From: Spizellomyces punctatus DAOM BR117
Taxonomy: Eukaryota
Assembly: GCA_000182565.2 (NCBI GenBank)
Contig: KQ257453.1
DNA length: 20,000 nt
Reading direction: 5' to 3' (one strand)
This document shows positions 1,040 to 18,444 of the stretch, one piece after another (positions within the stretch are counted from its first letter, which is position 1; each line of letters starts with the position of its first letter). The notes beneath the pieces are model-generated. The model saw only the letters and a program-made list of their open reading frames with translations, was not told the DNA's origin and did no database searches. The translations under genes were made by a program, and so were the position numbers.

Positions 1040-2890
1040 TCATCTGATCGCCATTCTCCTGTACGCATTAACCAACTCATCCTCAACGTCTTTCTCTCCA
1101 ACAGATTTTCCACACTTTCCGCCCTTTTTCTTGGCCTCCCAAATTTTCCAAAACTTGAGGTTCTCATCGCTTGCGCCGGTCGCTACCGTTTGACCATCAG
1201 GGCTTAAGGCTGTGTGAAGAACACGAGCATCATGGCCTTCCAAATCACCAATCTTGGTCAGTGACGGATATTTCCATATTGAAAGGTGATTGTTGGGAAA
1301 TCCATGAGATGTGAAAAATTCCTTATATTCCAGAGACCACAAGATGGACGTGACTTGAGACCCAGTGTCAACCGAGGCAATTTTTCCAGTGGTGGAAACG
1401 TTCCAAAAGTGAACTGTACGGTCGTGGGAACCTCCTCCTGTCGCCAGAGTGTTCAACTGCCATGGACACCATGCAAGCGCCTAGGTTTGAATAAAGCGGA
1501 GTCAGTACGGTGATGAGTTTTCTAAGAATAGGCGACTTCCTTACCTTTACTGCAGCGGTATGCTCTGCCTTTGTGAACTTAGGAAGACTCGATCTAGCAT
1601 CCCATATGACAACCTGATTGTCATTTCCTCCACTTGCCAGGAACTGTCCATCCGGCCTCCACTTCAGCCCACAGACATCGGACTCGTGAGATAGCAAAGA
1701 GGCCACCCGATGATTAGCCAAACGCACATCATGATTCCAAATACTGCCATCGCGGGCGCCCGAGGAGAGTACATTGGTATCCCAGGCAAGAACACCAACC
1801 CTGCTAGCCCTTCCTCGCATGGTTCGCATCTTTTTCAAACTTTCGAGGCTCCATATTTCTATATCACCCTCGCTCAGACCCACTGCCAAATGACTTCCGT
1901 CGGGTGCCCATTGTAGAGATGCCACGTATGTATCCTCCCGGGTTACCGAGCAAAGTGGCGCTGTTTTACCCGTATTGCCGTTCCAAAGATATACGGTATT
2001 GTCAAGAGCGATTGCTAACATATTGTTCGCCGACCAGTCGATCAAATTCAAGTAGAAATCGTCAGAGAGCCCTGGAGCATCCAAAACCTTCTCCGGTTCC
2101 GATTTCACGCGCCTTGCTGCAACGGTAGAGTTGGGTTTGCGGAGTGGTCTACTCCAGGATGTGCGAAAATCTTGCCGCTGGGCTGCTGGAGGTTCTGCAT
2201 TGAACGCTAAAATGCGCTTATCTAGAGCCACGCCGCACGCTTTAGCGACCTGCTCTTGGTATGCTAAAGTGTCCGGATCCAAAGTTTTCAGCTTTTGCCG
2301 ATCTGTGGTGTCTCGAATATTGAACTGTGAGGATGCTCGATCGATAGCGTCTTGACTTGGCACAAATCGGTCATACTACATAAGGAGAATTGTGCGGTTA
2401 GCTGTCTGAATTGCACAATCAAGGCCTATCCAGTGATCCTCTAATCCATTTCTATATCAAACGAGATGTTCATCTCTTCTATTTAAACAGCTGTGTTCAG
2501 ACCTACCATCCTTTCTTTTGCTTTTCCCCTTTTGCCACCACCACTCGGACTGACAGCCGCGACGCCCAATCGCTGCTTAATAAAGTTCTCTGCATTTCTC
2601 CCACTTATAACAGACGATCGTGGTGAATGCCCTAATCCAGTAGCATTATAGCTGCGCGGAGAGCGGGTATGGGCGACGGACGGTGAAGCACCTCCAGCTG
2701 AAGGACGGGTCGGTGTGCGACCGTGAACATGAAGACGGTCAGCAAAGCTGCGAGTTGGAGTTCCAGCAATCCGGCCAGCTGTACTCTTTCGCCGTGGAGT
2801 TTCCATAGTTTCCCTGACTCTGCGAGCTATCTGAGGGCTCATAGGGTTGAGACCTGTCTGGAGGTCCTTGGAGATGCTTGGGGGCGGCAT
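1040..2890 (-). CDS. CDC20: APC/C activator Cdc20/Slp1/Fizzy family WD40 protein, about 551 aa; exons 2890-2507, 2375-1545, 1480-1040
   Basis: Introns 2376-2506 (GTAGGT..TAG, GCTAAC branch) and 1481-1544 (GTAAGG..TAG) join in frame. Motifs: C-box YDRFVP at the start of exon 2, KILR-like KRILAF, VLDAPGLSDDFYLNLIDWS, HESDVCGLKW, ASGGNDN, HTAAVK|ALAWCPW, DENLKFW and a C-terminal IR tail. The N-terminus is rich in S/T-P sites. Confidence 0.95.
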
Positions 2891-5991: not shown

Positions 5992-8900
5992 ATGGTTCGG
6001 ACAGCAAGAGCGAACGTTGCCATTTTGGCAACACTGTTATCCTTGACACTCGACGTAGCGTATGGTCTAGTGGATCTGAAATTTGGTTCCATTCTACCCT
6101 TGAGCTATGCTGGCCTCGCGGATCTTTCCGCCGACATTCAGCTTGCGTTAGATCTCGCGCTTTCTGACTACAATACCCGAGTTTTTAACCCACTCAACGT
6201 GAACGTATCCATTGTCTATGCCGACTCCCAATTTACGCCGGCAGTTGCAAAGTCATATGCGAGGCAATTTGCATCCCAAGGGCTACTGGGTGTCATTGGT
6301 TAGTACTGCATCTTCCGAGGTAACAATCTTCACATTCTGATTAACCAGCTTACCCACCACCCAGGTGAGATGGGCTCCGGAGTCACGCAGCCTATCGCCC
6401 TGGAGTTGGCAGATAGGGAGATTCTGCAGTGTTCGGGGTCCGCAACTTCAGAAGACTTGTCATTGAAACAATATCGTTACTTTTTCAGGTAACTGCGATA
6501 TGCAAGCTCTTTAAAGATAGATACTCGATTTTAGCTAAACTTTGTACAGAACAATCCCTCCTGACAGTGTCCAAGGTTTTGTACTTGGTCAGATCGTCGA
6601 TACCTTTGGCTGGAAGAAACTCGGCCTGATTTACCAGGATACCGCTTACGGCAAAGGCATTATGACGAACCTACGGGCTCACGCAGCGGCAACTGATATA
6701 ACTGTATTGACTAATCAACCGTATGTCAACGCCGATGACTACGAAGATGCGGTAAAAGCCTTGAAAGCGTCCGATGCGAGAATCATCGTCTGGACTGGGG
6801 TCTATGCGGAACTTGTCGATATAGTCCCAATTGCCAGGTAGCCATCTTAGTGACCACGCAATCCTCGTCCTGTTGGATGTAAGTATAACTAAAAAGGCCA
6901 ATCATGTAGGCGTCATGGCTTATTTGGACCAAACTACGTGTGGATCGCAACAGAAAATGCTATATCGGCCATTGACGCCATACGGAGCAGAATTGCGACC
7001 GGAGCAAGCAGTGCTGATGACCTTGCAAGTCTAAGTGGATTGCTCATTAGTACACCTGGTATGGCTGCATGGTCTTCGACACGTATACCGGAATATTGAA
7101 AGAAATTGTTCATTATTCTCCAGTCGAGGGTCAGGGATCCCGATTCGACAATTTCTCTGCCTCATACTCGTCAACTTACCACAATTCCATGGGCCAATAT
7201 TCTGCGGTATAAAGCGCACTTTGACATACGTGCCCCAAAATTGCCGCCATTGCTTAATCTCCTTCTGCATCATAGTTCTTTGTGGACTGTTTGTCAATCA
7301 TGCTAGACGGGCTTACAAAGGTCAGTGTAATCGTTGGAAGGAATTGCATGCAGGGACACCTCCTGAATCACCTATTCATGCAGTACCAAAATACCTCGAA
7401 TTCCACTTGGAACGACATTGCTCAAGGCAAATTTCCTCGCGACTTGACGGTTCTGCTGAAGCCAGTTGACGGGTTGACCGGTCTTACAGGACCAATTCAT
7501 TTCAACACCAATTTTGATCGGATTGGGAGCTACAAGGTCCTCAATTTCCATCAAGGAGATTTGACGAAGATAGGCGAGACAGTCGACGAAACATACAACG
7601 TTCAGCGCAACAATAACACAGTCATTTTTGCGAGCGGTACCCCTGTAGTACCAGCAGATCGGCCTGGTTTGTAATTTGCATAACGTTGTCAAGCCAGCTC
7701 CCTCATCTTTTGTTGCTTACGGTTTCATTTTGCCCCGTAGTGCTTGTCCCGGACTGGTTTGAATACGGACATGCAGTTTCCGTCATTATCATGATCCTAT
7801 ATGGTGCAATGATGGCCATCAACTTCGCATCACTCGTTATCGTATTCCTTTGGCGTCGGCGTAAAGAAGTCAAAGGTATGCTACGTCGCTCATGCCATGA
7901 GGTCGGGAATCACGCATTTAAATGAGTGCTTGAACGTTAGCTCTCAGCCCCGAGTTCATGATTATTATGGGTCTGGGTATGCAGCTGAGTTACGGGGCTG
8001 TTTTCACCCTCATCGGAGAGCAGACTACCGTCAAATGCATGGCAAGACCGTGGCTTTATGGGATTTCTTTTGCAATTGTCATGGGATGCCTCATTGGGAA
8101 GGTCAGTGTTCCATACTTGCCGTGGGAGAACGGTCGTTAATAGAAGACTGATTGGTTTTGAATGCCTGCTCAATAGGCATTCCGTATTTGGAAAGTCTTT
8201 GCAAATGAGGTAGAGTTCACCGTTCTCTTGCGAGTTACTGATAGAGCACAATTCGATAACCCCTCCTGCAGCGACTTGCCGCCCCCATTAGGTTCCTTCA
8301 AATCCTCCGCCTGGCAGGAGCGTTTTCCATTGGAGAATCTGTACGTAGGGAGTGCATTCTTACTCAAGTGCTTCACTAATCCAAAGCAAACAGATTATCC
8401 TGCTTGTGTGGAGTATCTATTCGCCGTTGTCCCCTTTGATGGTAGCGAACAAGGAAAAAGGTGGGGTCTACTTGGCAAATTAAACCTACCAGGAGATGTT
8501 GGAACCTGATCGGTTGTTTTTCGGATTCGCAGGAACATTCACGTACGTTTGCGTTTCCCCGGAGCAATCTGACGTGTTCAACGGAGTGATTTTTGGGTGA
8601 GGATAGGCATTACAAGCACTTGATCTCTGCATTCCCTGCTTACTTACTTGCCGCCAGATACAATGGGCTTTTACTTTTGGCTGCAACTTATTTAGCTGCA
8701 GTGACGCGGAATGTACCATCTAGATACTCGGAATCCAAGGTATTTAGCGAGTAAAGGTGCAATCAAGCGGCCAATAACTAAAACGCACTGCATTGATCGG
8801 CGCTAGTTCATTGCTTTAACGGTGTATTCGGTAATGCCATCCGTTTCCGAGATTGTTGCTGATTTTTTGGCTTACGACCTTCATCCTTCTCAAAATATTG

Positions 8901-9647
8901 TAGCTACTAATTTGGTGCACGCTTATTATCGTCGTGTCATATTCCGCGGGCGCTGCCACAACGCTGGTCTTCTTTATTATCACCTTCGGTGTTCTTTTCG
9001 TGACAACGACCACCTGGGCTCTTCTCATTGGACGGGTCATTCTCAGTCAACTCACTAACGATCCTGCTGATGAGATTGCCAGCCTTCCCAGTACACCAAA
9101 GCTTATGCGGCAAAATGCAGTGGGAGCTGGGGAAGCATTCAAGAGTGCTTCTCAACTGCCAATGTCTGCAAACAGCAGCACAAAGATTCCATCCCCCTTA
9201 GCATCTCAGATGCTTCGTGGAGATATTTCCGAATTTCCTGTGAAAATCACGTCGTCGTGGATCTCCCGATGGGAGCGGTATGAGCTGATCTTTACTCTAG
9301 TACCGGTAGCTCGGTTAGCACTTCGGCCGGTAGCATCCGACAAGGAAGGTGGGCGGAGCTATTGCGTAGACATCAGCAAAGTGCAGGCAACGAAGGCAAA
9401 TGTTAAGGGAGTTAAGAACTGCTTTGAGATTGTCGCTCCTGGTATTACGCTTCTCGTCCAAGCCACCTCTGAGGAACAAGTTCAAGACTGGCTGCGTAGA
9501 ATGAAACAAGCAGGTTGCCTGCGGGGAGAAGATTCTACTGGACGGACCAGTTCAGCTCCTGGTCAAGGCGGCGGCTCGATAAATCGTGCGGACGTCGAAA
9601 CCAAAGGAGGGAAGGATATTTCTAGTGCTGATGTGCTAGGAAAGTAG
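5992..9647 (+). CDS. Class C GPCR-like receptor (signal peptide, Venus-flytrap/ANF-receptor domain, 7TM, C-terminal PH-like domain), about 885 aa, 16 exons
   Basis: Exons 5992-6298, 6365-6488, 6550-6837, 6910-7058, 7124-7206, 7276-7320, 7384-7666, 7741-7875, 7941-8101, 8177-8209, 8272-8340, 8394-8460, 8533-8596, 8658-8739, 8807-8830, 8904-9647; all introns GT..AG and phase-consistent. Flytrap motifs: GVIGEMGSGVT, QCSGSATSEDLS, YFFRTIPPD, FGWKKLGLIY, GPNYVWI, GLTGPIHF. GABA-B-like 7TM motifs: VKALSPEF, CMARPWLYGISF, GKAFRIWKVF, ILLVWSIYSPL, YNGLLLLAATYLAAVTRNVPSRYSESKFI. Confidence 0.9.
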
Positions 9648-9701
9648 CTTCCCATGATAAATGACCCACCATGCCGTAGTTATTAGAACAAGTAGACTCA
9701 T

Positions 9702-9740
9702 GTACAGTCCTATCATACACGACGTACAGTCCTATCATAC
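9702..9740. repeat. Short tandem duplication (17-nt unit x2, period 22) downstream of the GPCR stop
   Basis: GTACAGTCCTATCATAC occurs at 9702-9718 and 9724-9740. Confidence 0.8.
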
Positions 9741-10372
9741 TCGTCGTGTTCATGTTACTGTGTCCCCTCACACTTCGATATCCATATGTCGGTTTATGCT
9801 CTTCGTAAGCATTGCGTGACAGTTTGGTCGACAAGGTATCATCATTAAAGACCAACCGATGGGACTACTGCTGCTTGAAGTTTAAAGAGGACCAATTATG
9901 CCCGACTTGGGTTGGGCAATGAGACTGTGATTAAGACCAAGTCGCTTGACTTTGGACTAGTTAAGCGCAGCATTGCTGATGTTAGTTGGAAAAATACATT
10001 TTTCGTGGTTTTTTATGTTTCGGGCAATGTGCGCTGGATACGGTCATTTATGATGGCATACCCCAAGGATCGCAATGTACGGGGATCCAGTGCACACTCA
10101 AAAAGCTATTTTCGTCGATGCAGCCTAGGGATCCTGATATAGTTCCAGAAGGGGTTTTGACTCGATAACCTGCGAAGTTTTAGAGCGGCTGGTAATCGGA
10201 GCTCAGCGTTGGGGCTAACTTGAAGGCGTTTATAGGCTCACATGGTAATTGCCGTTTGCTTTGGTATGCAGGGCATGTTGTCTTTTACCTCATGTCCTGT
10301 TCTTTTGCCCATCCTAGAGCCAGGTTCACTTCCCTTCTTTATGGCGAAGTGCACTGTCTGTTCACGGTCACC

Positions 10373-11915
10373 ATGGACTGCCCGCAGCTGGACATAAGAA
10401 ATATCGGCCCGTATTCGCTTGAGGATGACTGGTATATTACCGGGAAATGCGTCTCAAACATCGGCCGTCTCAGCCTTTATGGTTTCAATATTATGATATA
10501 CGGAGCTGGCATCTTACTCGGGATATTTGCAGTCGTACTGAATACCCGTGCCCACAAGAATTGGTTGAAGACAATGCCTGCTAAGCCAGTTATTGCCTGC
10601 CTCCTCGTATCGATAGGTAAGTAGCTCTCCATGCTCTGGCATCCACCGTACTGAATCGTGCTCACACTTTGTTTAACTCTGCGTTCGAGGTTATACTGCA
10701 TCGTACCTTTGCTATCTTTTCCAAGTGCCACCAGCAGCTGGAGTAATATGCTGGTGGTTAAGCATTCAGTTCACCAATATCTTTCAGGAATGATCCGCTG
10801 TTTCAAAGCCTGGGTGCGAAACGAAAATGTTATTAATACATATTGTTCAACAGGTGGTGGTTGCAAACGGCTGGCTGGCCCCCGTACGCAGATTCATCGA
10901 GTTGCAGAGTATTGGGTCGGACGTCAAATCATCAATCAACACCGCCGGTACACATCTGGAACGCCATTGTTTTCTCCTACTCGGCGCTTCTATTACATAT
11001 AACATCGGCATCGTTACGGGATGGGCGGTATATATGCAGCTCCATGATGCAGGGAAGGTGTTCCTTTTTCACACCTTGTTTAATTCTGGAACATTTCTGT
11101 GCCTTATCGTACTCCATTTCCTGTGCTCGAGATCGTTCACAAGAATACTAGTGGCATTAGGTGAAGCGGATAATCTTCACAAGCAGGGTATGCATATTTT
11201 CCCTTGTTTTTGGTGAACAGCGACTGTTCTGGTGAGCAGATAACGATCTGATGGTAGTACTTGCTCTTATTGCAGCTCTTGTGGTTGGCGGCAATGTTAG
11301 GCACGCGACCACCAATGCGGGCAACAATGTGATTTCCGGTGACGGAAGGAAAGTTCTTAACGTGATTCGGCTGGTAATGTAGACGGACGAAAGCAATTAC
11401 GAATGCATGGATTAGAAAGTCCCCGACCTAGTGTATTGAAACTCGCAGGTTCCTTTCAGGTGAAGAAAACCCGCCGGGCTGCGTGGGCCTCCGCCGGTCC
11501 ATCATTTCTCATCCAGAGCTCCGTTCTGCTTTGGACAGTGATAGCCCGTACACCAGAAGGCATGAATGGCCAGACATACCTATTCTGCTTTAGATCACTT
11601 GCCACCGCACCCGCTGTGATTGCAAGTTAGTTCTTGGCAGATTTCATATCGCGCGCCTTGTAACACTTGGCTCTTCCAACTGATGTGCTTCTCTGCCTCT
11701 TGGTTGGTCACTCGATAGGTCTGTGGATGTACGGAGTAGTCAAGGGCAGGGAGCGTGCAGATTTCACACCAGAATGCATCAATCACCTATCTCTTCGATC
11801 CACTTCTTTGCATCAGAGCGGAGAGGACCTCAAAGTAACTTCACAAGCGGTAGATAGTTGCATTGAAAGCAAGACGTCAAGGATATTGAATGACGGCTTT
11901 GAAGTGGATGATTAG
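10373..11915 (+). CDS. Hypothetical 7-transmembrane (GPCR-like) protein, about 378 aa; exons 10373-10616, 10690-10787, 10854-11187, 11276-11373, 11460-11625, 11719-11915
   Basis: Phase-consistent splicing gives seven hydrophobic segments, a long loop between TM5 and TM6 and a polar C-tail. The intron 1 acceptor is GAG. The best intron 2 donor is non-canonical (GAATGA at 10788); an alternative GT donor lies at 10743. No family-diagnostic motif was recognised. Confidence 0.65.
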
Positions 11916-12755
11916 TCATGTAGACATATTATGATTGGGAAGGATTCAAGGTGGTGACCGGCAAGGAAAGGTATCCAAGAAAGACAAATAGATATAGACA
12001 AATGGACACAATAGACTATTCTACTTCACGTTAGGGTAGCTCTCATGGTGCTTTTCAGAATATGAGATGGAATAACTTCCACAAGTGTAACTAATACGAG
12101 GCTATAGGGGAACGGGTGAAGTAAAGTAAAACCTGCGAACTGACTCTTTTGGAAAGGGCTTTTATGTCTAGCTACGGCCGTTGCGCACAAATCCCTTTTG
12201 GATGGATCATATCTTACCCAGGCAAGACGTTTAGAAGTGAAGGCGGGTTCGGAATATTGTCCTTTGATAAATAAACTGCCAGAACCCTTGTGTTCTCTCT
12301 ACCTATGGAAAAGATTTTTGGATACTGACTCAACTGCTACACTAAGCTTGCGAACGAGAACTGCTAAGAAGGGACTACCGAAATCTGGGTCTTTGGGGTT
12401 AGAGTGCTCCCGAGAATGTCCAAGAGAGATGAGGTACTCACGAGACAGCCGCCAGGTTAAAGCTGTCCACACTGCTTTCACGTGCAGTTGCGCAATCGGA
12501 TGCAGCAAACTTGATCAAGAGGACTTCGTGTGCATGCAGGCGTTCTGAGACCCGCCAGAAGTCGTCAGTCGTAGATCAGTTTTCAGAGGACCTGTTGCAG
12601 ATGGTTCATCAATCCGAGACCTGAACTACCCGCTAGGTAAAGCGTGCCAGTCATGTTATTTAAGTGGAGCGGAGGTTATGGTATAGCGTACTTCCCACCA
12701 GTGTCCATCTACAAGTACCCTCGACATTTGTCGCCTTTTTAACTCATTTGCGGCC

Positions 12756-15454
12756 TCACAGTTTGTGCACACTGCAATATTTGCGGCCGGAGTATGTGCG
12801 TGTCGGACAAGGCTGGTCTGTACGAGGGCCACTGACAAATACATGATGGCACTGCATGCACGACTTTCTGCCAGGCTTTGCCTCTCGGCTACAAGGTTGT
12901 CGGTCACCTGTTCGATTAATGGAGTAAGAAGTGAATCTCAAAAGGGAAAACTGAACTAAGAATTGCTATGCACTGACCGCACACTTTGTTACACAGTAGC
13001 TGTTGCGTTGCCAATGTTGCTGGAGCACGATGTGAAGCAACCTTCTGTTTCTTCTTGATCTTCTTATCTGACTCGCGTGCTGCGCACACGCGTTTCTTGG
13101 AGTCCGTATCCTTTCCATCGTCCTCTCCATCATCTGCTTCATTGAAGCTATACTCCTCCGGCACATACTTGTCGTCTGCCGTCATATTCGCCAAATCATT
13201 TGGCAGAGTGCGATTCAATCGTTCCTCGTCTTCTTCATCTTCCTCATCTTCATCTTCCTCAATCTCCTCAGAGTTGCTGGCACCAGCGTTTCTCGGACGT
13301 CTTCCAATGGTTGCTGGAGGGTTTACCTTGTAGATTTCGGCTATGTACTTCAACAGCTTCGCATGGCGTTTCTCGAATTCCAAACAAGTCCACTGTTGAT
13401 CGGCTTTCACAAGTGTCATGGTAGTGAGCGCGAAGGGGACCATCTCCCCTTTCCGATTTTCAGTATAGATATCCTTCTTAGTCGCCCATGGGGCGTTCGA
13501 GCACTGAATGTTCGTAGAAGCGGGAAGCAAGCATAGGTTGCCGAGACGATTTGTATTCCCTTGAAAGTCGATTTTGTCCCACGCACGTCCGGGGTTTTGA
13601 GGATAGATGTGTTCGATCTGAACCTTCTCCCAATCATATGCCACTTTAGTGGAAGACATCTCCGCATTAATTCGACGAAGTATATATTGTGTAGCGAAGA
13701 TGCCTGCTCCGCCATATAGATTGCCATTAATGCGCGTAAGGAAAACTTTAATTTCTTGAGGCCTAGGTTCGAGCGCCGTACAGACCATCTCATCACTACG
13801 AGCGGTCGCTATGTCCTGAGGAACATTGAATATTAAACAAAAGAAACTAGTGACTGACTTATATTACCATTACCTTCAGAATGTCATAAAATCGGATGAT
13901 CAGTTTTTCCTTTAGTGAATCCACTCCTTTGCGGGGTTGCTTGTAGCCCACAAACAGGACTGCTATCAGTTTCTCTAGTCTATTCCAAAACTCCTCCTGT
14001 TGGAGAAGCTTAATATTGAACTTTCCGGCCGCCAAGGCTACAGTAAGCCACGTGCGCCAAAGCAAGCCAATATCGAAAGTCGTTTTGAGATGAATGCGCG
14101 ACTTATTTTCTCGAACCTGGGCCCAATCCAAGGCAGTACGACTAGGTTCCATGATGGAACGCCATAAGACTGAGTGCGTCTTGATCTTGTCGATCAGGAT
14201 TCCGGGGGTCAATGTATCGAACATGTAACGGTGATAAGGTGAATTTGTGTTCCCTAATGAGGCAGAGAAACTTAACAGAAAGCTCGACTTCTGTGCAGTA
14301 CCAGCCATTTCGATGCGGTATAGATGGTCAAGAAGTTCGCTGAAATTCTGCAAACTAAGAGTTATAACTATGCCGCCCCTCTGCTTCAGGTAAAAAGTGC
14401 ACATACTGCTGTATTGCCAAGTTGTTTCTCGGCTTTAACCCACTGCCCAACTTTCAATTCATATCCATCTCCGACAGAAGCCTTTAGCTTTCCAAAGGTG
14501 ACGGCTTTGAGATAATCCACTGGCGTTAAAGGTACACCGGGCACGTTTAAAGAAGTGAAAATGCGGTATGCTGAGTCCACGTCATGAGTATAAATAACGA
14601 GAAAGCGACACCGCTTATAAAAATAGTGTGCTAGTTTCTCCCTGATGGCGATGTGGCCTGTTCAGCAACCGTCCAATGCTGCTGATGCTTCAGCACTAAC
14701 CTGCTTTCCCGTTCCATGTTCTCTAGAATGCCCGCCAACTCGCGCACGTTTTCGCTGAGTAACTCGACAACAGGACGAGCATCTCGATCCGGAACAGCGA
14801 GTTCATAATCTTTGTCTAAGTGCTCCTCTAAGTCTGCCGGGTCAAGGAAATGGTCGCAGAAAGCTTGGTGATACGGCGCAGCAAGATTTAACCGATACGT
14901 GAAGTAATCTTTCGGAACCGCACTCTTTATCCATTTGGTATAAACTTGCTTCTGGTTCGGTGGTGCGAAATGCCGGAAGACGGAAAGGAGCAATATCATA
15001 GTAGTTAGGCGTTGTTGACCATCCACTATATCAAGTACTCGTTTGCTGTTCTGCTGAGGAGCCAACACAATTGTACCGAGAGGATGATATGGCGCACGTT
15101 CTTTGCATGCATCGTGCACATCGCTAAGAAGCCGTGTTACCATCTGTGGAGTCCAACAGTATCGTCTTTGGTAAATCGGTACTGAAAGGATAATCTGCTG
15201 ATGTTTTGTTGTTTCACCGAAAATGCCTTTCAAGCGCTTTTCGGTGAACAACTTATCATTGTCCTCACCAAAGAGTTGCGCGAGTGTACAATCTCGTACG
15301 TCTCTTATCGCGGTTTGATGCTTTTAGGTATATAATATGAGTTAATTGCCCTGGGAAGTCCAGCAAAGGAAAAACCATTTACCTGCTGGGCTCCGGCCAT
15401 ATTTCCTTGACCCTGATTTTGGCGACGAGGATGATGTCCATTTGCTGTCCCCAT
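12756..15454 (-). CDS. GmrSD/SspE-like DUF262 (NTPase) + DUF1524 (HNH nuclease) protein with an acidic/NLS/zinc-finger tail, about 796 aa; exons 15454-15383, 15320-14701, 14641-14407, 14347-13874, 13815-12978, 12907-12756
   Basis: Five GT..AG introns (62, 59, 59, 58, 70 nt) join the ORFs into one uninterrupted frame. DUF262 motifs: VPIYQRRYCW (PIYQR at 15165-15179), IVDGQQRLTT (DGQQR at 15009-15023) and AYRIFTSLNVPGVPLTPVDYLK. DUF1524 motifs: IEHIYPQ (EHIYPQ at 13597-13614) and RLGNLCLLPASTNIQCSNAPWATKKDIY (LGNL at 13534-13545). The start may instead be the ATG at 15400. Confidence 0.88.
13222..13269 (-). repeat. Low-complexity GAN repeat encoding the acidic tract EEIEEDEDEEDEEDEE
   Basis: Read directly within exon 5 of the DUF262/DUF1524 gene. 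Confidence 0.85.
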
Positions 15455-15739
15455 CTCATCGGAAAATAGTTGGCCACTCCATTCCCTTACGTAATGACTG
15501 GATACTATATCAAAAGCTCGCACATCTGACACAATCCTGGATGCAGATGTGCCCTCACCACAGGAGAGTTTACCTTAGGGCAAGCTGTCCAATTTCGGTG
15601 TTTTGCAGCCAAAACCATGCATCCTGAGCCAGAATCGTGATTAAACTAGATTTTGACACAATAGAGGCACTCAGTTTGAACATAGCCCTAGATACAAGAC
15701 CACCTTTCAATGCCAGAAAGCCCCAAGTTGTCATATGCA

Positions 15740-16182
15740 CTAATTTCCGATTGCTCTCGAAATATCAGCAACTACATCAGAGGGATCCTTGCCTTCCTCC
15801 ACCTCCAAAACCAGCTTCCCATACGGCCCACTGGCGTTCAACATGATCTGGATGGTGCGCGCTGGGTCATTGGTGTAGATGAAATCTGGCTTTGTCCTCC
15901 AATGATAAAACGTTCCTTTTTTCAAATATGCATAGAATGATGGTGTTAACTTCAGAGGCCGCTACCTGAACAAAATGCCTACCAACCTGCTATAAGACCG
16001 TGAGGTATAACAACCCCATACCTGGTGGTATACCAAGGCACGGAGACATTAGCATCTACCCTAACAGAGTCGATCTCCGAGAGCGGAACGGTGAGATCAG
16101 TAAAACGCCCACACAAGAATTTCTGCAGCATCGTAAGGGACACCGTCAGATGAGAATCAACAAGGGTGATTGCTACGGGCAT
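15740..16182 (-). CDS. Small 123-aa protein resembling bacterial hypothetical proteins (possible bacterial PH-like fold); exons 16182-15987, 15915-15740
   Basis: A 71-nt intron (15916-15986, GTTGGT..AAG) joins two ORFs in phase: MPVAITLVDSHLTVSLTMLQKFLCGRFTDLTVPLSEIDSVRV...GVVIPHGLIAG|TFYHWRTKPDFIYTNDPARTIQIMLNASGPYGKLVLEVEEGKDPSDVVADISRAIGN. The VPLSxIxSV and GxxIPxxxxAGTF/Y pattern is recalled from actinobacterial/cyanobacterial hypothetical proteins and was not checked by search. Confidence 0.75.
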
Positions 16183-16810
16183 CGTGCAATATTGTAGGGC
16201 ACTTGTTCATGACGGCGTCCTTTTATAAAAGGACCAATTCCTTGAGCCCTTGTGTGACTGATCCACATATACCACTCGACCACACAATGACTTTACAGAT
16301 TGACATATTCTTGGGAATTGAAATACGCATCAATTGAAAAATGCGTGAAGTCAGTGGTGGGCCTCAGTAATTACTGCCCAAATTCGCACTTTGCTGTTCG
16401 CTATGAATAATGGTCTTCCTACGTTCGCCGTGTCTTCCATTGCACATAAGTGGCTCATTACCAGTTCGTGGTTGCCACGGTTCAACTGCGGGTGCCGGGG
16501 AGCCACGCCTCACTTGGCTCGCTCTGGCGGTATGGGAATTGCATTGCTTCCAAGTGAACAGTGATTGAGCACTTCCCATGAGGCTTCTTCTACGCCCAAC
16601 TAAACTGTGTTGATTAGGTGAAGACCAATTCGGCTAGTGGCACAGTCATGTTGTCTTTGGCCCAGTCATGGCACATTTAAGGTTTTAAACTTTAAAAGTG
16701 GTATGCCAACCCCGATTTGCGACCGCTGGTGCCAGACGGCTAGAGGCCTTCATTGCTGCACATCCACAAAGCCGACGAACCAACGAACAAGCACCTGCAC
16801 ACAGCATGTG

Positions 16811-16852: not shown

Positions 16853-18444
16853 ATGTCCGCAGCTGCCTTTCTTTTCCAAGAAGTACCAGTCTCGACGATC
16901 CTTATCCTGCTCGGTTTCCTCGTTCTTCTCAATTTTGCTCGCACGCTCTTCACGATTGCATTGCGTGCCGGGCTAGTGGGAGAGATTGCCATCGGCCTAG
17001 TGTTTGGCACCCCGCTACTGGATTTGCTTGGTGTTGGGCTTCAGGAGACCTTTGCTGCATTAGGGTATTTGGGGCTTCTTTCCATTGTGTTTGAAGGTAC
17101 GGATATCGTCATTGTTGGTTTGCTTTTGAGTTGGTATCAATAAGTTATTCACCATGGTGTCACTTTCAAGGTGGACTGGGAACGAACCTGAAACAAGCCA
17201 AGCGCAACATTGGGCTATCCCTGTTAGTTGGCACTACAGGCATATGTTTGCCGATCGTAACATGTATCCTTTTCTTTCACTTTGGGTTCAGTTCTACATT
17301 CTTGCAGGGGTTCACTGCTGGTGCGGCTTTGAGTGCCACCTCCCTTGGAACTACTTTCAGCATTCTGGAGGATGCAGGATTAACTAAGACAAGGGTTGGG
17401 ACTGTGCTAATCAGCGCTGCTATGTTTGACGATGTGGTTGGGTTGGTGATATCGCAGGTACCATCAAAGGTTCTGTTTTACAATGAATCGGTTATGCACG
17501 TGCTAATATCAGTATGCATACAGGTCGTCCACGGACTTGCACAAGATGCCCACCACGGCGCAAATGCCATAGGATGGCAAATTGGTCGTCCGATACTCGC
17601 ATCAGCTGGGTTGCTCCTGGTAACCTACGTACTTGTTAAAGTAGGCTTGCTCATCTTACCAGCACTTTTGGCCCGTATGTCATTGAGCAGCCGAGGCCAC
17701 CAATACTGGAGCGTCGTAGCATTGTTCATTTTACTCGTTGCATTCATCGCAATATCGTCCTACAGTGGCACGTCACATCTCCTAGGGACATTCTTGGCCG
17801 GGATATCACTCCGAGCAATTGAATCCGGTCTCACGCAAAAGACAGGAGCAGAACCACATTGTGCCCCGTCACACATATTTGAGCGGCACATTCGGCCGAT
17901 TCAAGAATATGTGTTTGCACCGCTTTTTTTTGCGACGATTGGGTTCGCGATACCTATTCGAACAATGTTTGATGGAGAGACCTTGTGGATGGGGCTTGTG
18001 CTGACAGTTTTGATGACCGTTGCCAAATGGCTGTCAGGGATTTCGGTTTTGGTTTGGAATTTAAGACCGAAAGAGAACTTGATGGATGAAGCAGCTCTGG
18101 AGATCGTCGTGGGGCCAAATTCTTTGGGTGAATTCAATTCCACAAGGGAATTAGTTCCGATGACGGTGCACGAAAATGCAAACCTGGTTAGCCCAGAGTT
18201 TAAGCCCGATACGCGCAATCAGAAAGACGTGAAGCTTCTCCCGTTAATGATTCTCGGATTCTCTATGGTTTCCCGCGGAGAGATAGGGCTCTTGATAGCA
18301 AATATTGCTTACCCTAGTGTATTAGACGAGCGTCTATTCAAAGTTTCCATATGGGCGGTGTTGTTGTGTACTATTATTGGGCCATTTGCCGTTGGGCACA
18401 TGGTAAAAAGTGGAGTAGTGGAGCGCTTGGGCAAGTGGGGATGA
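16853..18444 (+). CDS. Cation/H+ antiporter (Na_H_Exchanger, CPA2-type), about 483 aa; exons 16853-17096, 17171-17457, 17524-18444
   Basis: Introns are 17097-17170 and the in-frame 17458-17523. Motifs: GLVGEIAIGLVFG, LGYLGLLSIVFEG|GL, GAALSATSLGTT, AAMFDDVVGL (ion-binding DD), LLGTFLAG, FAPLFFATIG, MVSRGEIGLLIA. Many transmembrane segments. Confidence 0.9.

Follow-up and report, generated by a model that had tools for sequence, protein, structure and literature searches.

The locus examined here raises the question of how a gene for a restriction-type nuclease came to stand, divided by introns, in the genome of a chytrid fungus, and what such an enzyme might do there. The window, by which we mean the whole stretch of DNA that was analysed, comprises 20,000 nucleotides of contig KQ257453.1 of Spizellomyces punctatus DAOM BR117, and the gene in question, SPPG_03059, lies on its minus strand. 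A first-pass annotation made from the letters alone had described it as an intron-containing, GmrSD/SspE-like restriction nuclease and a candidate domesticated antiviral system. On balance, we lean towards reading SPPG_03059 as an intact enzyme of the GmrSD superfamily that was acquired from bacteria and would serve as a nucleoside triphosphate (NTP)-gated nuclease attacking foreign DNA in the nucleus. The parts of this reading differ in weight: we hold with high confidence that SPPG_03059 is a real gene with a bacterial origin, its product is probably a catalytically active NTPase-nuclease, and a role in genome defence is put forward tentatively.

Gene structure and domain composition

A junction scan followed by splicing resolved the locus into six exons (15454..12756, minus strand) and five GT..AG introns; wherever two open frames adjoin, the scan found a single frame-compatible intron of 58-70 nt whose donor is consensus-like. 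The spliced coding sequence (CDS) has 2391 nt, corresponding to 796 codons and a TGA stop (12758..12756), and its translation is letter for letter that of database protein P0001, which was retrieved separately by homology search and whose record carries the names 'uncharacterized protein SPPG_03059 [Spizellomyces punctatus DAOM BR117]' and 'DUF262 domain-containing protein'. The exon number, intron lengths, protein length of about 796 residues and coordinates given in the first-pass annotation were all correct. The features of the gene, in the order of transcription, are as follows.

Exon 1, 15383..15454, minus strand: residues 1-24, with the ATG at 15454..15452
Intron 1, 15321..15382, minus strand: 62 nt, GTAAAT..AAG; alignment to the chytrid orthologues unbroken over the junction
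Exon 2, 14701..15320, minus strand: residue 25 to the first part of residue 231; chytrid-specific N-extension and start of DUF262, with PIYQRRYCW and DGQQR (15009..15023)
Intron 2, 14642..14700, minus strand: 59 nt, GTTAGT..CAG; splits DUF262
Exon 3, 14407..14641, minus strand: up to residue 309; end of DUF262 including AYRIFTSLN (GmrSD_N 2.5e-6, profile 148-197)
Intron 3, 14348..14406, minus strand: 59 nt, GTATGT..CAG
Exon 4, 13874..14347, minus strand: residues 310-467; inter-domain linker, aligned to the bacterial linker region
Intron 4, 13816..13873, minus strand: 58 nt, GTAATG..CAG
Exon 5, 12978..13815, minus strand: residue 468 to the first part of residue 747; DUF1524 His-Me/HNH domain, followed by the tail's acidic tract and basic patches
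DUF1524 within exon 5, 13348..13695, minus strand: residues 508-623, with E535-H536 at 13609..13614
Intron 5, 12908..12977, minus strand: 70 nt, GTCAGT..CAG; in the lineage-specific tail, supported by the annotated model only and the least supported of the five
Exon 6, 12756..12907, minus strand: residues 747-796 and stop; two C-x10-C-x2-[C/H] units in a Cys/His-rich end
Transcribed stretch past the stop, 12385..12755, minus strand: RNA reads, including an intron at 12441..12385

Both Pfam profiles of the proposed architecture scored well above their cut-offs on the whole protein, namely GmrSD_N/DUF262 (PF03235; 109.8 bits against a cut-off of 33.2, 2.4e-31, residues 64-278) and GmrSD_C/DUF1524 (PF07510; 64.3 bits against a cut-off of 23, 1.4e-17, residues 508-623). 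When the exons were scanned singly, GmrSD_N was recovered in exon 2 (4.8e-22, profile 11-108) as well as in exon 3, and GmrSD_C in exon 5 (6.6e-19); the sharing of one profile between exons 2 and 3 indicates that DUF262 continues across intron 2. SPPG_03059 is thus predicted to consist of a ParB/Srx-like NTPase domain (DUF262), a linker and a His-Me (HNH) nuclease domain (DUF1524). The predicted Atlas model of the protein superposes on bacterial GmrSD clusters with TM values of 0.62-0.66, and a scan of four of the proteins against NCBIfam returned no family.

All motifs that had been named from the sequence (PxYQRxYxW, DGQQR, FxxLN, EHxxP, LGNL, N and SN) are present, as PIYQRRYCW at residues 72-80, DGQQR at 124-128, FTSLN at 259-263, EHIYP at 535-539, LGNL at 558-561, N569 and S573-N574. 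In an alignment of 32 family members (3 chytrid proteins, 23 from named bacteria and 6 without an organism name), P72, Y74, Q75, R76, W80, D124-R128, A255, R257, F259, N263, E535 and N560 are among the columns invariant in 32/32 sequences, and H536, N569 and N574 are among those conserved in at least 90%. SPPG_03059 retains every residue that is invariant in the family, including the NTPase motifs QR, DGQQR and FxxxN as listed for GmrSD (PMC4619093) and the D/E-H...N...N nuclease motif (E535, H536, N560 and N569/N574), as well as all those residues found experimentally important in its relatives. Identity between the Spizellomyces and Geranomyces proteins is 71% in DUF262 and 74% in DUF1524, and drops to 58% over the linker and 47% over the tail, which is the pattern expected under constraint on the catalytic domains.

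The same alignment bears on the splice sites. The junctions between exons 2 and 3, 3 and 4, and 4 and 5 all fall in stretches that align without gaps to intronless bacterial homologues, and none of introns 2-4 has a length divisible by three, so that reading on through them would shift the frame; these three splices therefore have independent support. For intron 1, the support comes from continuity with the Geranomyces and Rhizophlyctis proteins only. At the 5' end, Met19 of SPPG_03059 aligns with Met1 of the Geranomyces protein, so that the true start may be either Met1 or Met19, and at the 3' end the Geranomyces model diverges after a common 'C-x-K-V-C', so that an error in either 3' model is possible.

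Bacterial origin and distribution among chytrids

An exhaustive HMMER pass with exon 2 over 1.84 billion cluster representatives (E ≤ 1e-3) matched 5645 of them, only three of which were close: P0002 of Geranomyces variabilis (2.7e-91), the 220-residue fragment P0003 (4e-33) and P0004 of Rhizophlyctis rosea (2.4e-28), with the next match at 7.7e-12. The chytrid hosts belong to the Spizellomycetaceae, Powellomycetaceae and Rhizophlyctidaceae, and thus to the Spizellomycetales and Rhizophlyctidales within the Chytridiomycetes (NCBI taxonomy), and intact open reading frames (ORFs) of 686-796 residues were found in three genera of these two orders. The best prokaryotic matches, among the best 80 of 452, were 26-29% identical over residues 50-631 and came from Nostoc, Leptolyngbyales, Limnohabitans, Caulobacter and many other Pseudomonadota.

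In a tree of 112 rows, the chytrid trio was monophyletic (support 99) inside a group of 67 rows (support 99) that is otherwise bacterial or unnamed. A tree of 45 rows recovered the trio with 100/99 in the order ((Spizellomyces, Geranomyces), Rhizophlyctis), which agrees with the taxonomy, and gave the same support to the branch that parts an actinobacterial subclade and the outgroup from the group containing the chytrids. With a distant GmrSD-like clade taken as outgroup, the chytrid proteins are nested in bacterial diversity, which points to bacterial donors, and the chytrid stem of about 1.9 changes per site indicates that the transfer is old. A viral origin was considered and rejected; the chytrid alignment found five weak matches in viral contigs, and P0089, which represents a sister family described below, found none. 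No chytrid-like orthologue was found among the metagenome contigs, the best identity being 27-28% among the best 80 of 376 relatives.

The base composition of the gene is that of its surroundings, with a GC content of 0.46-0.47 compared to 0.45-0.49 in the flanks and a third-position GC content of 0.482 compared to 0.472-0.494 in three neighbouring host ORFs. Codon usage was uninformative: its correlation to the host ORFs was r = 0.165, yet two host ORFs correlated with each other at 0.147. No direct or inverted repeats were found flanking SPPG_03059. A domain scan of the window placed the following features around the gene.

CDC20/Fizzy WD40 gene, 1368-2375, minus strand
ANF-receptor/periplasmic-binding-like piece, 6539-6841, plus strand
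PH-domain protein gene, 8904-9647, plus strand
Na/H exchanger gene, 17095-18444, plus strand

Taken together, the well supported clade, the introns, the host-like GC content and the ordinary host neighbours bear out the horizontal bacterial origin and integration that had been proposed for the gene. The sequence comparisons give good support to an old transfer from bacteria to chytrids with vertical descent afterwards; the gene was acquired before the split of Spizellomycetales and Rhizophlyctidales and has since gained introns and a host-like base composition.

Nearest characterised relatives

The first-pass annotation had compared SPPG_03059 with GmrSD, BrxU and SspE and had suggested that it restricts modified viral or other foreign DNA. 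GmrSD and BrxU cut DNA containing modified cytosine, SspE is activated by phosphorothioate, and DndI, another member of the superfamily, is restrained by it.

Among the PADLOC models, the best match of SPPG_03059 was PDLC02686, 'Orf5' (3.6e-51, positions 7-565 of 566), and three HEC-06 models followed at 7.7e-48 to 9.6e-42, PDLC04155 being the best of them, whereas the SspE models matched in two short stretches only (best 9.4e-26). In the PDB, the best match was DndI (9jfl_B). The single sequence matched it in two stretches (4.4e-17), and the family profile over positions 7-553 of 554 (2.1e-49). Next came two further chains labelled 'DUF262 domain-containing' and then SspE, and no BrxU chain was found in the PDB sequence searches at E ≤ 0.01 or 0.001. 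By these comparisons, the nearest characterised relatives appear to be DndI and the HEC-06-type stand-alone GmrSD-like proteins rather than SspE or BrxU. Of the earlier label, the assignment to the GmrSD superfamily therefore stands and the likeness to SspE is imprecise, as the partial SspE match contrasts with an end-to-end match to Orf5; BrxU and SspE likewise give way to DndI as the best solved relative.

Entry 9JFL represents DndI from Salmonella enterica Cerro 87, which serves as effector in the phosphorothioate-based defence system IscS-DndBCDE-DndI (PMC11662687). The ATPase activity of DndI depends on D83GQQR87 and its nicking on the HNH motif, and its N541A variant nicks more weakly and has lost the defence function; phosphorothioate in DNA stimulates the ATPase and frees DndI from self DNA (PMC11662687). 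The two proteins have in common a DUF262-linker-DUF1524 arrangement within about 600 residues, together with YQR, DGQQR, the E-H pair and the asparagine, and in the alignment D83GQQR87 corresponds to D124-R128, the E-H pair to E535-H536 and N541 to N569 of SPPG_03059. In contrast, DndI is toxic unless a partner phosphorothioation module marks the self DNA (PMC11662687), the single-sequence alignment between the two is partial, and introns, an N-extension and a long tail set the chytrid protein apart. The antiviral role and the restriction of modified DNA that had been proposed were overstated. The closest characterised relative, DndI, does not cut modified DNA; it acts as a nickase and lets go of self DNA that carries the mark (PMC11662687).

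The HEC-06 protein loses phage defence on mutation of Q79/R80 in DGQQR or of E471/H472 in EHICP (bioRxiv 2024.01.29.577857); DGQQR is common to both proteins and EHICP corresponds to EHIYP of SPPG_03059, whereas the HEC-06/Orf5 proteins, which occur in bacteria as stand-alone or embedded defence genes, are intronless, about 560 residues long and without the chytrid tail. GmrSD (Eco94GmrSD/EcoCTGmrSD), a type IV restriction enzyme, is the founding member of both Pfam families and has the same motif set (PMC4619093), but its target is glucosyl-hydroxymethylcytosine DNA and the chytrid protein groups with another bacterial subfamily. SspE (6JIV/7DRS) is likewise a DUF262-DUF1524 protein and an NTPase-gated nickase, but its PDB match to SPPG_03059 is 4e-10 over residues 69-140 only, and it has about 770 residues, another C-terminal organisation and a need for SspABCD. 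BrxU (PDB 7P9K; bioRxiv 2024.01.29.577857) belongs to the same superfamily with the same motif logic, and the BREX setting is not present at the eukaryotic locus.

As had been noted from the sequence, no methylase and no Ssp/Brx-type domain was found when 20 ORF pieces from the window were scanned, which yielded only the CDC20, PH, Na/H-exchanger and ANF-receptor domains. Bacterial relatives stood beside restriction-modification or other defence genes at three of the five loci scanned, and none of the ten neighbour proteins scanned was of Dnd type. At L007:1508-5892 the relative lies next to an N6/N4 DNA methylase and a ResIII helicase, at L022:1034-3832 next to a large methylase, and at L023:4983-5900 and 8058-10481 next to a REase_MTES_1575 nuclease and a SIR2-STAND protein. 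A family-wide conserved partner gene was not found, the maximum being 9/49 loci in one subclade, which fits a stand-alone enzyme; a stand-alone defence nuclease would also be the most economical reading of SPPG_03059.

The novelty of such a gene had been overrated. Eukaryotic DUF262/DUF1524 proteins are known already and P0001 itself is in public databases: GmrSD homologues were reported in 2015 from three eukaryotic genomes (Bacillariophyta, Chlorophyta and Heterolobosea; PMC4619093), and 263 eukaryotic DUF1524 sequences in 2017, with a suggested transfer between Agaricomycetes and Agromyces (PMC5714182). Chytrids are not mentioned in the available text of these two reports, and DUF262, GmrSD, restriction and nuclease do not occur in the main text of a survey of horizontal gene transfer in 44 early-diverging fungi (PMC11291939). 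In the literature on fungal GmrSD and horizontal gene transfer, as far as it was searched, nothing was found on chytrid GmrSD-like genes. What is added here is an old, well supported bacterium-to-chytrid case with eukaryotic embellishments.

Transcription of the locus

Transcription was assessed in an RNA run with the same species label, of which about 6 in 100 was read and from which 522 reads were placed. Minus-strand RNA, assigned by the strand of the first mate, was present at a depth of 3-14 over 12400-12969, reaching 14 over 12742-12855, and thus spans exon 6 and at least 370 nt past the stop codon. Six minus-strand reads jump from 12442 to letters at 12368-12384, defining a 57-nt intron (12441..12385) that begins 315 nt downstream of the annotated stop, and since this intron reads GT..AG on the minus strand only, transcription of that strand is confirmed. 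No minus-strand ORF of more than 90 residues was found downstream of the stop, and the RNA there is either a probable 3' untranslated region bearing an intron or a separate non-coding transcript. The stop codon of SPPG_03059 itself lies in a donor-like context (AAA CT/GTGAGG).

In a root metatranscriptome, three short contigs with near-identical sequence were found over 14939-15322. One of them, at depth 2, carries an alternative 125-nt GT..AG joint (15144-15268, minus strand) inside exon 2, which would delete the YQR motif and shift the frame; the deeper contig (depth 4) is unspliced there.

Proposed function and its alternatives

By analogy with DndI, HEC-06, SspE, GmrSD and BrxU, SPPG_03059 could be an NTP-gated DNA nickase or endonuclease. 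DUF262 would bind DNA, sense a chemical feature of it and hydrolyse NTP through DGQQR, and the NTP step would set whether the HNH domain (E535/H536/N560/N569) remains on the DNA and cuts. The most speculative step is that the enzyme might act alone in the nucleus against foreign or aberrantly marked DNA, such as that of viruses, incoming DNA or possibly transposons; an antiviral role in particular is suggested by analogy only. The question is of wider interest, since the ways in which eukaryotes take over and tame immune proteins of bacteria are actively studied, a TIR protein domesticated in amoebae being one example (2026 preprint, PMC13142454). Giant viruses infect zoosporic fungi, and which defences the hosts use is a question posed in the same work (PMC13533422). 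Should the enzyme read DNA marks, it could account for barriers to foreign DNA in chytrids. Genetic transformation of S. punctatus has reportedly been achieved, going by the title of PMC7213984, which would make the question testable in the native host.

Several observations weigh against the reading of SPPG_03059 as a bacterial nuclease now directed at foreign DNA. None of the five CDS junctions was captured in the part of the RNA run that was read, because the depth is 0-2.4 over most of the gene. The distribution among chytrids is a lower bound, as the protein library may lack some chytrid proteomes, and the backbone supports that would place the bacterial donor are 39-63 in an unrooted tree. 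A self-marking partner, as DndBCDE is for DndI, was not seen in the 20-kb window, and neither 'Spizellomyc' nor 'Rhizophlyctis' is mentioned in the available text of the giant-virus paper (PMC13533422). The DNA of S. punctatus carries N6-methyladenine (6mA) on expressed genes and 5-methylcytosine (5mC) on transposons (PMC12695648), and a general 5mC- or 6mA-dependent type IV cutter would therefore be self-destructive, which implies that the target is a modification not found in the host, that the host marks serve as a 'self' signal or that the enzyme is otherwise regulated. Finally, the sister family of the chytrid clade, comprising P0089 and six relatives (P0193, P0109 and P0194-P0197), consists of proteins with DUF262 only, in which DUF1524 is not recognisable and the E-H pair is missing in the alignment, indicating that non-nuclease roles do arise in this branch.

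The P0089 family consists of AT-rich, Asn/Lys/Ile-rich proteins that share chytrid-type motifs such as W-x-x-W-[LI]-T-[VI]-A-L and join the chytrid clade with a support of 100/98, on a very long branch. Its members may come from additional eukaryotes, in which case the clade would widen, or represent the donor lineage.

The host marks also allow a more far-reaching version of the defence reading, which we regard as a long shot, namely that SPPG_03059 is the effector of a eukaryotic self/non-self DNA discrimination with DndI-like logic. A constitutively competent nickase would scan nuclear DNA and let go wherever its NTPase is stimulated by the host's 6mA (on genes) and/or 5mC. On giant-virus, virophage-like or transforming DNA, or any other DNA that lacks this pattern, it would remain and cut a nick. 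If true, this would amount to a restriction-modification-like immunity in a fungus, in which a bacterial nuclease is combined with a pre-existing eukaryotic methylation.

Among the alternatives to a role against foreign DNA, the one that survives best, although we consider it unlikely, is that the fungus domesticated the enzyme for a DNA transaction of its own, such as the processing or repair of modified bases, transposon control at 5mC repeats or a role in chromatin, to which its acidic, basic and Cys-rich tail would tether it. The fungal additions speak for this alternative, being conserved among the chytrid proteins and lacking in the bacterial relatives. An N-extension of about 45 residues precedes DUF262 in all three chytrid proteins, and partly in fragment P0003, and starts with 'TAI[RK]D[VL]RDC.LAQL' in Spizellomyces and Geranomyces. 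The Spizellomycetales proteins further carry a tail of about 165 residues after DUF1524, which in Spizellomyces is E/D/K/R-rich, with an acidic run, the basic patches KKRV and KKIKKKQK, and the Cys/His-rich end. The basic patches, which look like putative nuclear localisation signals, are also found in Geranomyces and are reduced in Rhizophlyctis.

The Cys-rich C-terminal tail had no Pfam match at E ≤ 0.1, and residues 735-796 (12756-13014 including intron 5) had sub-threshold Atlas neighbours only (score 0.77), namely small zinc-motif proteins of DUF5763/WRC/KANSL2 type, many of them from Nucleocytoviricota. The Cys/His end may be similar to a WRC-type zinc module, a resemblance that Pfam did not confirm.

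An endogenous role would also find its substrates in the host, where 5mC is confined to transposons and 6mA lies on genes, and would suit a gene that stands among housekeeping-type genes with no defence-island context and that has been retained vertically for long in at least three genera. On the other hand, the characterised two-domain members of the family are all defence nucleases, as far as the literature covered goes, the narrow taxonomic range is unlike that of core housekeeping genes, and the tail is weakly conserved, with 47% identity to Geranomyces and gaps at 118/166 positions in Rhizophlyctis, where it is mostly missing.

That SPPG_03059 is a relic, functionless or in slow decay, with a frame left open by chance and hardly any expression, would agree with the very low read depth over the coding exons, with the lack of a known function and with the loss of the nuclease motif in the P0089 family, but we consider it very improbable, given the intact ORFs in three genera of two orders, the retention of all family-invariant residues and the stronger conservation of the catalytic domains compared to the linker and tail. 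The transcription of the 3' end on the minus strand and the near-identical contigs in the root metatranscriptome argue in the same direction. Even as a relic or a repair factor, the gene would present a clean, datable case of transfer from a bacterium to a fungus, with introns gained and eukaryotic tails added. An assembly artefact or bacterial contamination, which might be suspected because outside the chytrids the nearest relatives are without exception bacterial or unnamed, can be dismissed with near certainty by the five spliceosomal-type introns (three of them breaking up conserved domains or the linker at positions aligning gap-free to bacterial proteins), the eukaryotic flanking genes, a GC content equal to that of the flanks, a longest contig of 1,741,622 bases listed in the protein record, an identity of just 28-29% to any bacterial homologue, and genomic contigs from two other runs with the same organism label, which include introns 2-4 and cover 13140-15448 contiguously.

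Other transcripts at the locus

A polyadenylated minus-strand transcript ends at 15618, just upstream of the start of the nuclease gene (11 reads whose loose end is poly-T; 15592-15800 covered at a depth of 68-103), and no minus-strand ORF of more than 90 residues was found in 15618-16700. In the stranded RNA run, plus-strand reads at a depth of 1.5-2.4 were observed over 13426-13767, antisense to exon 5.

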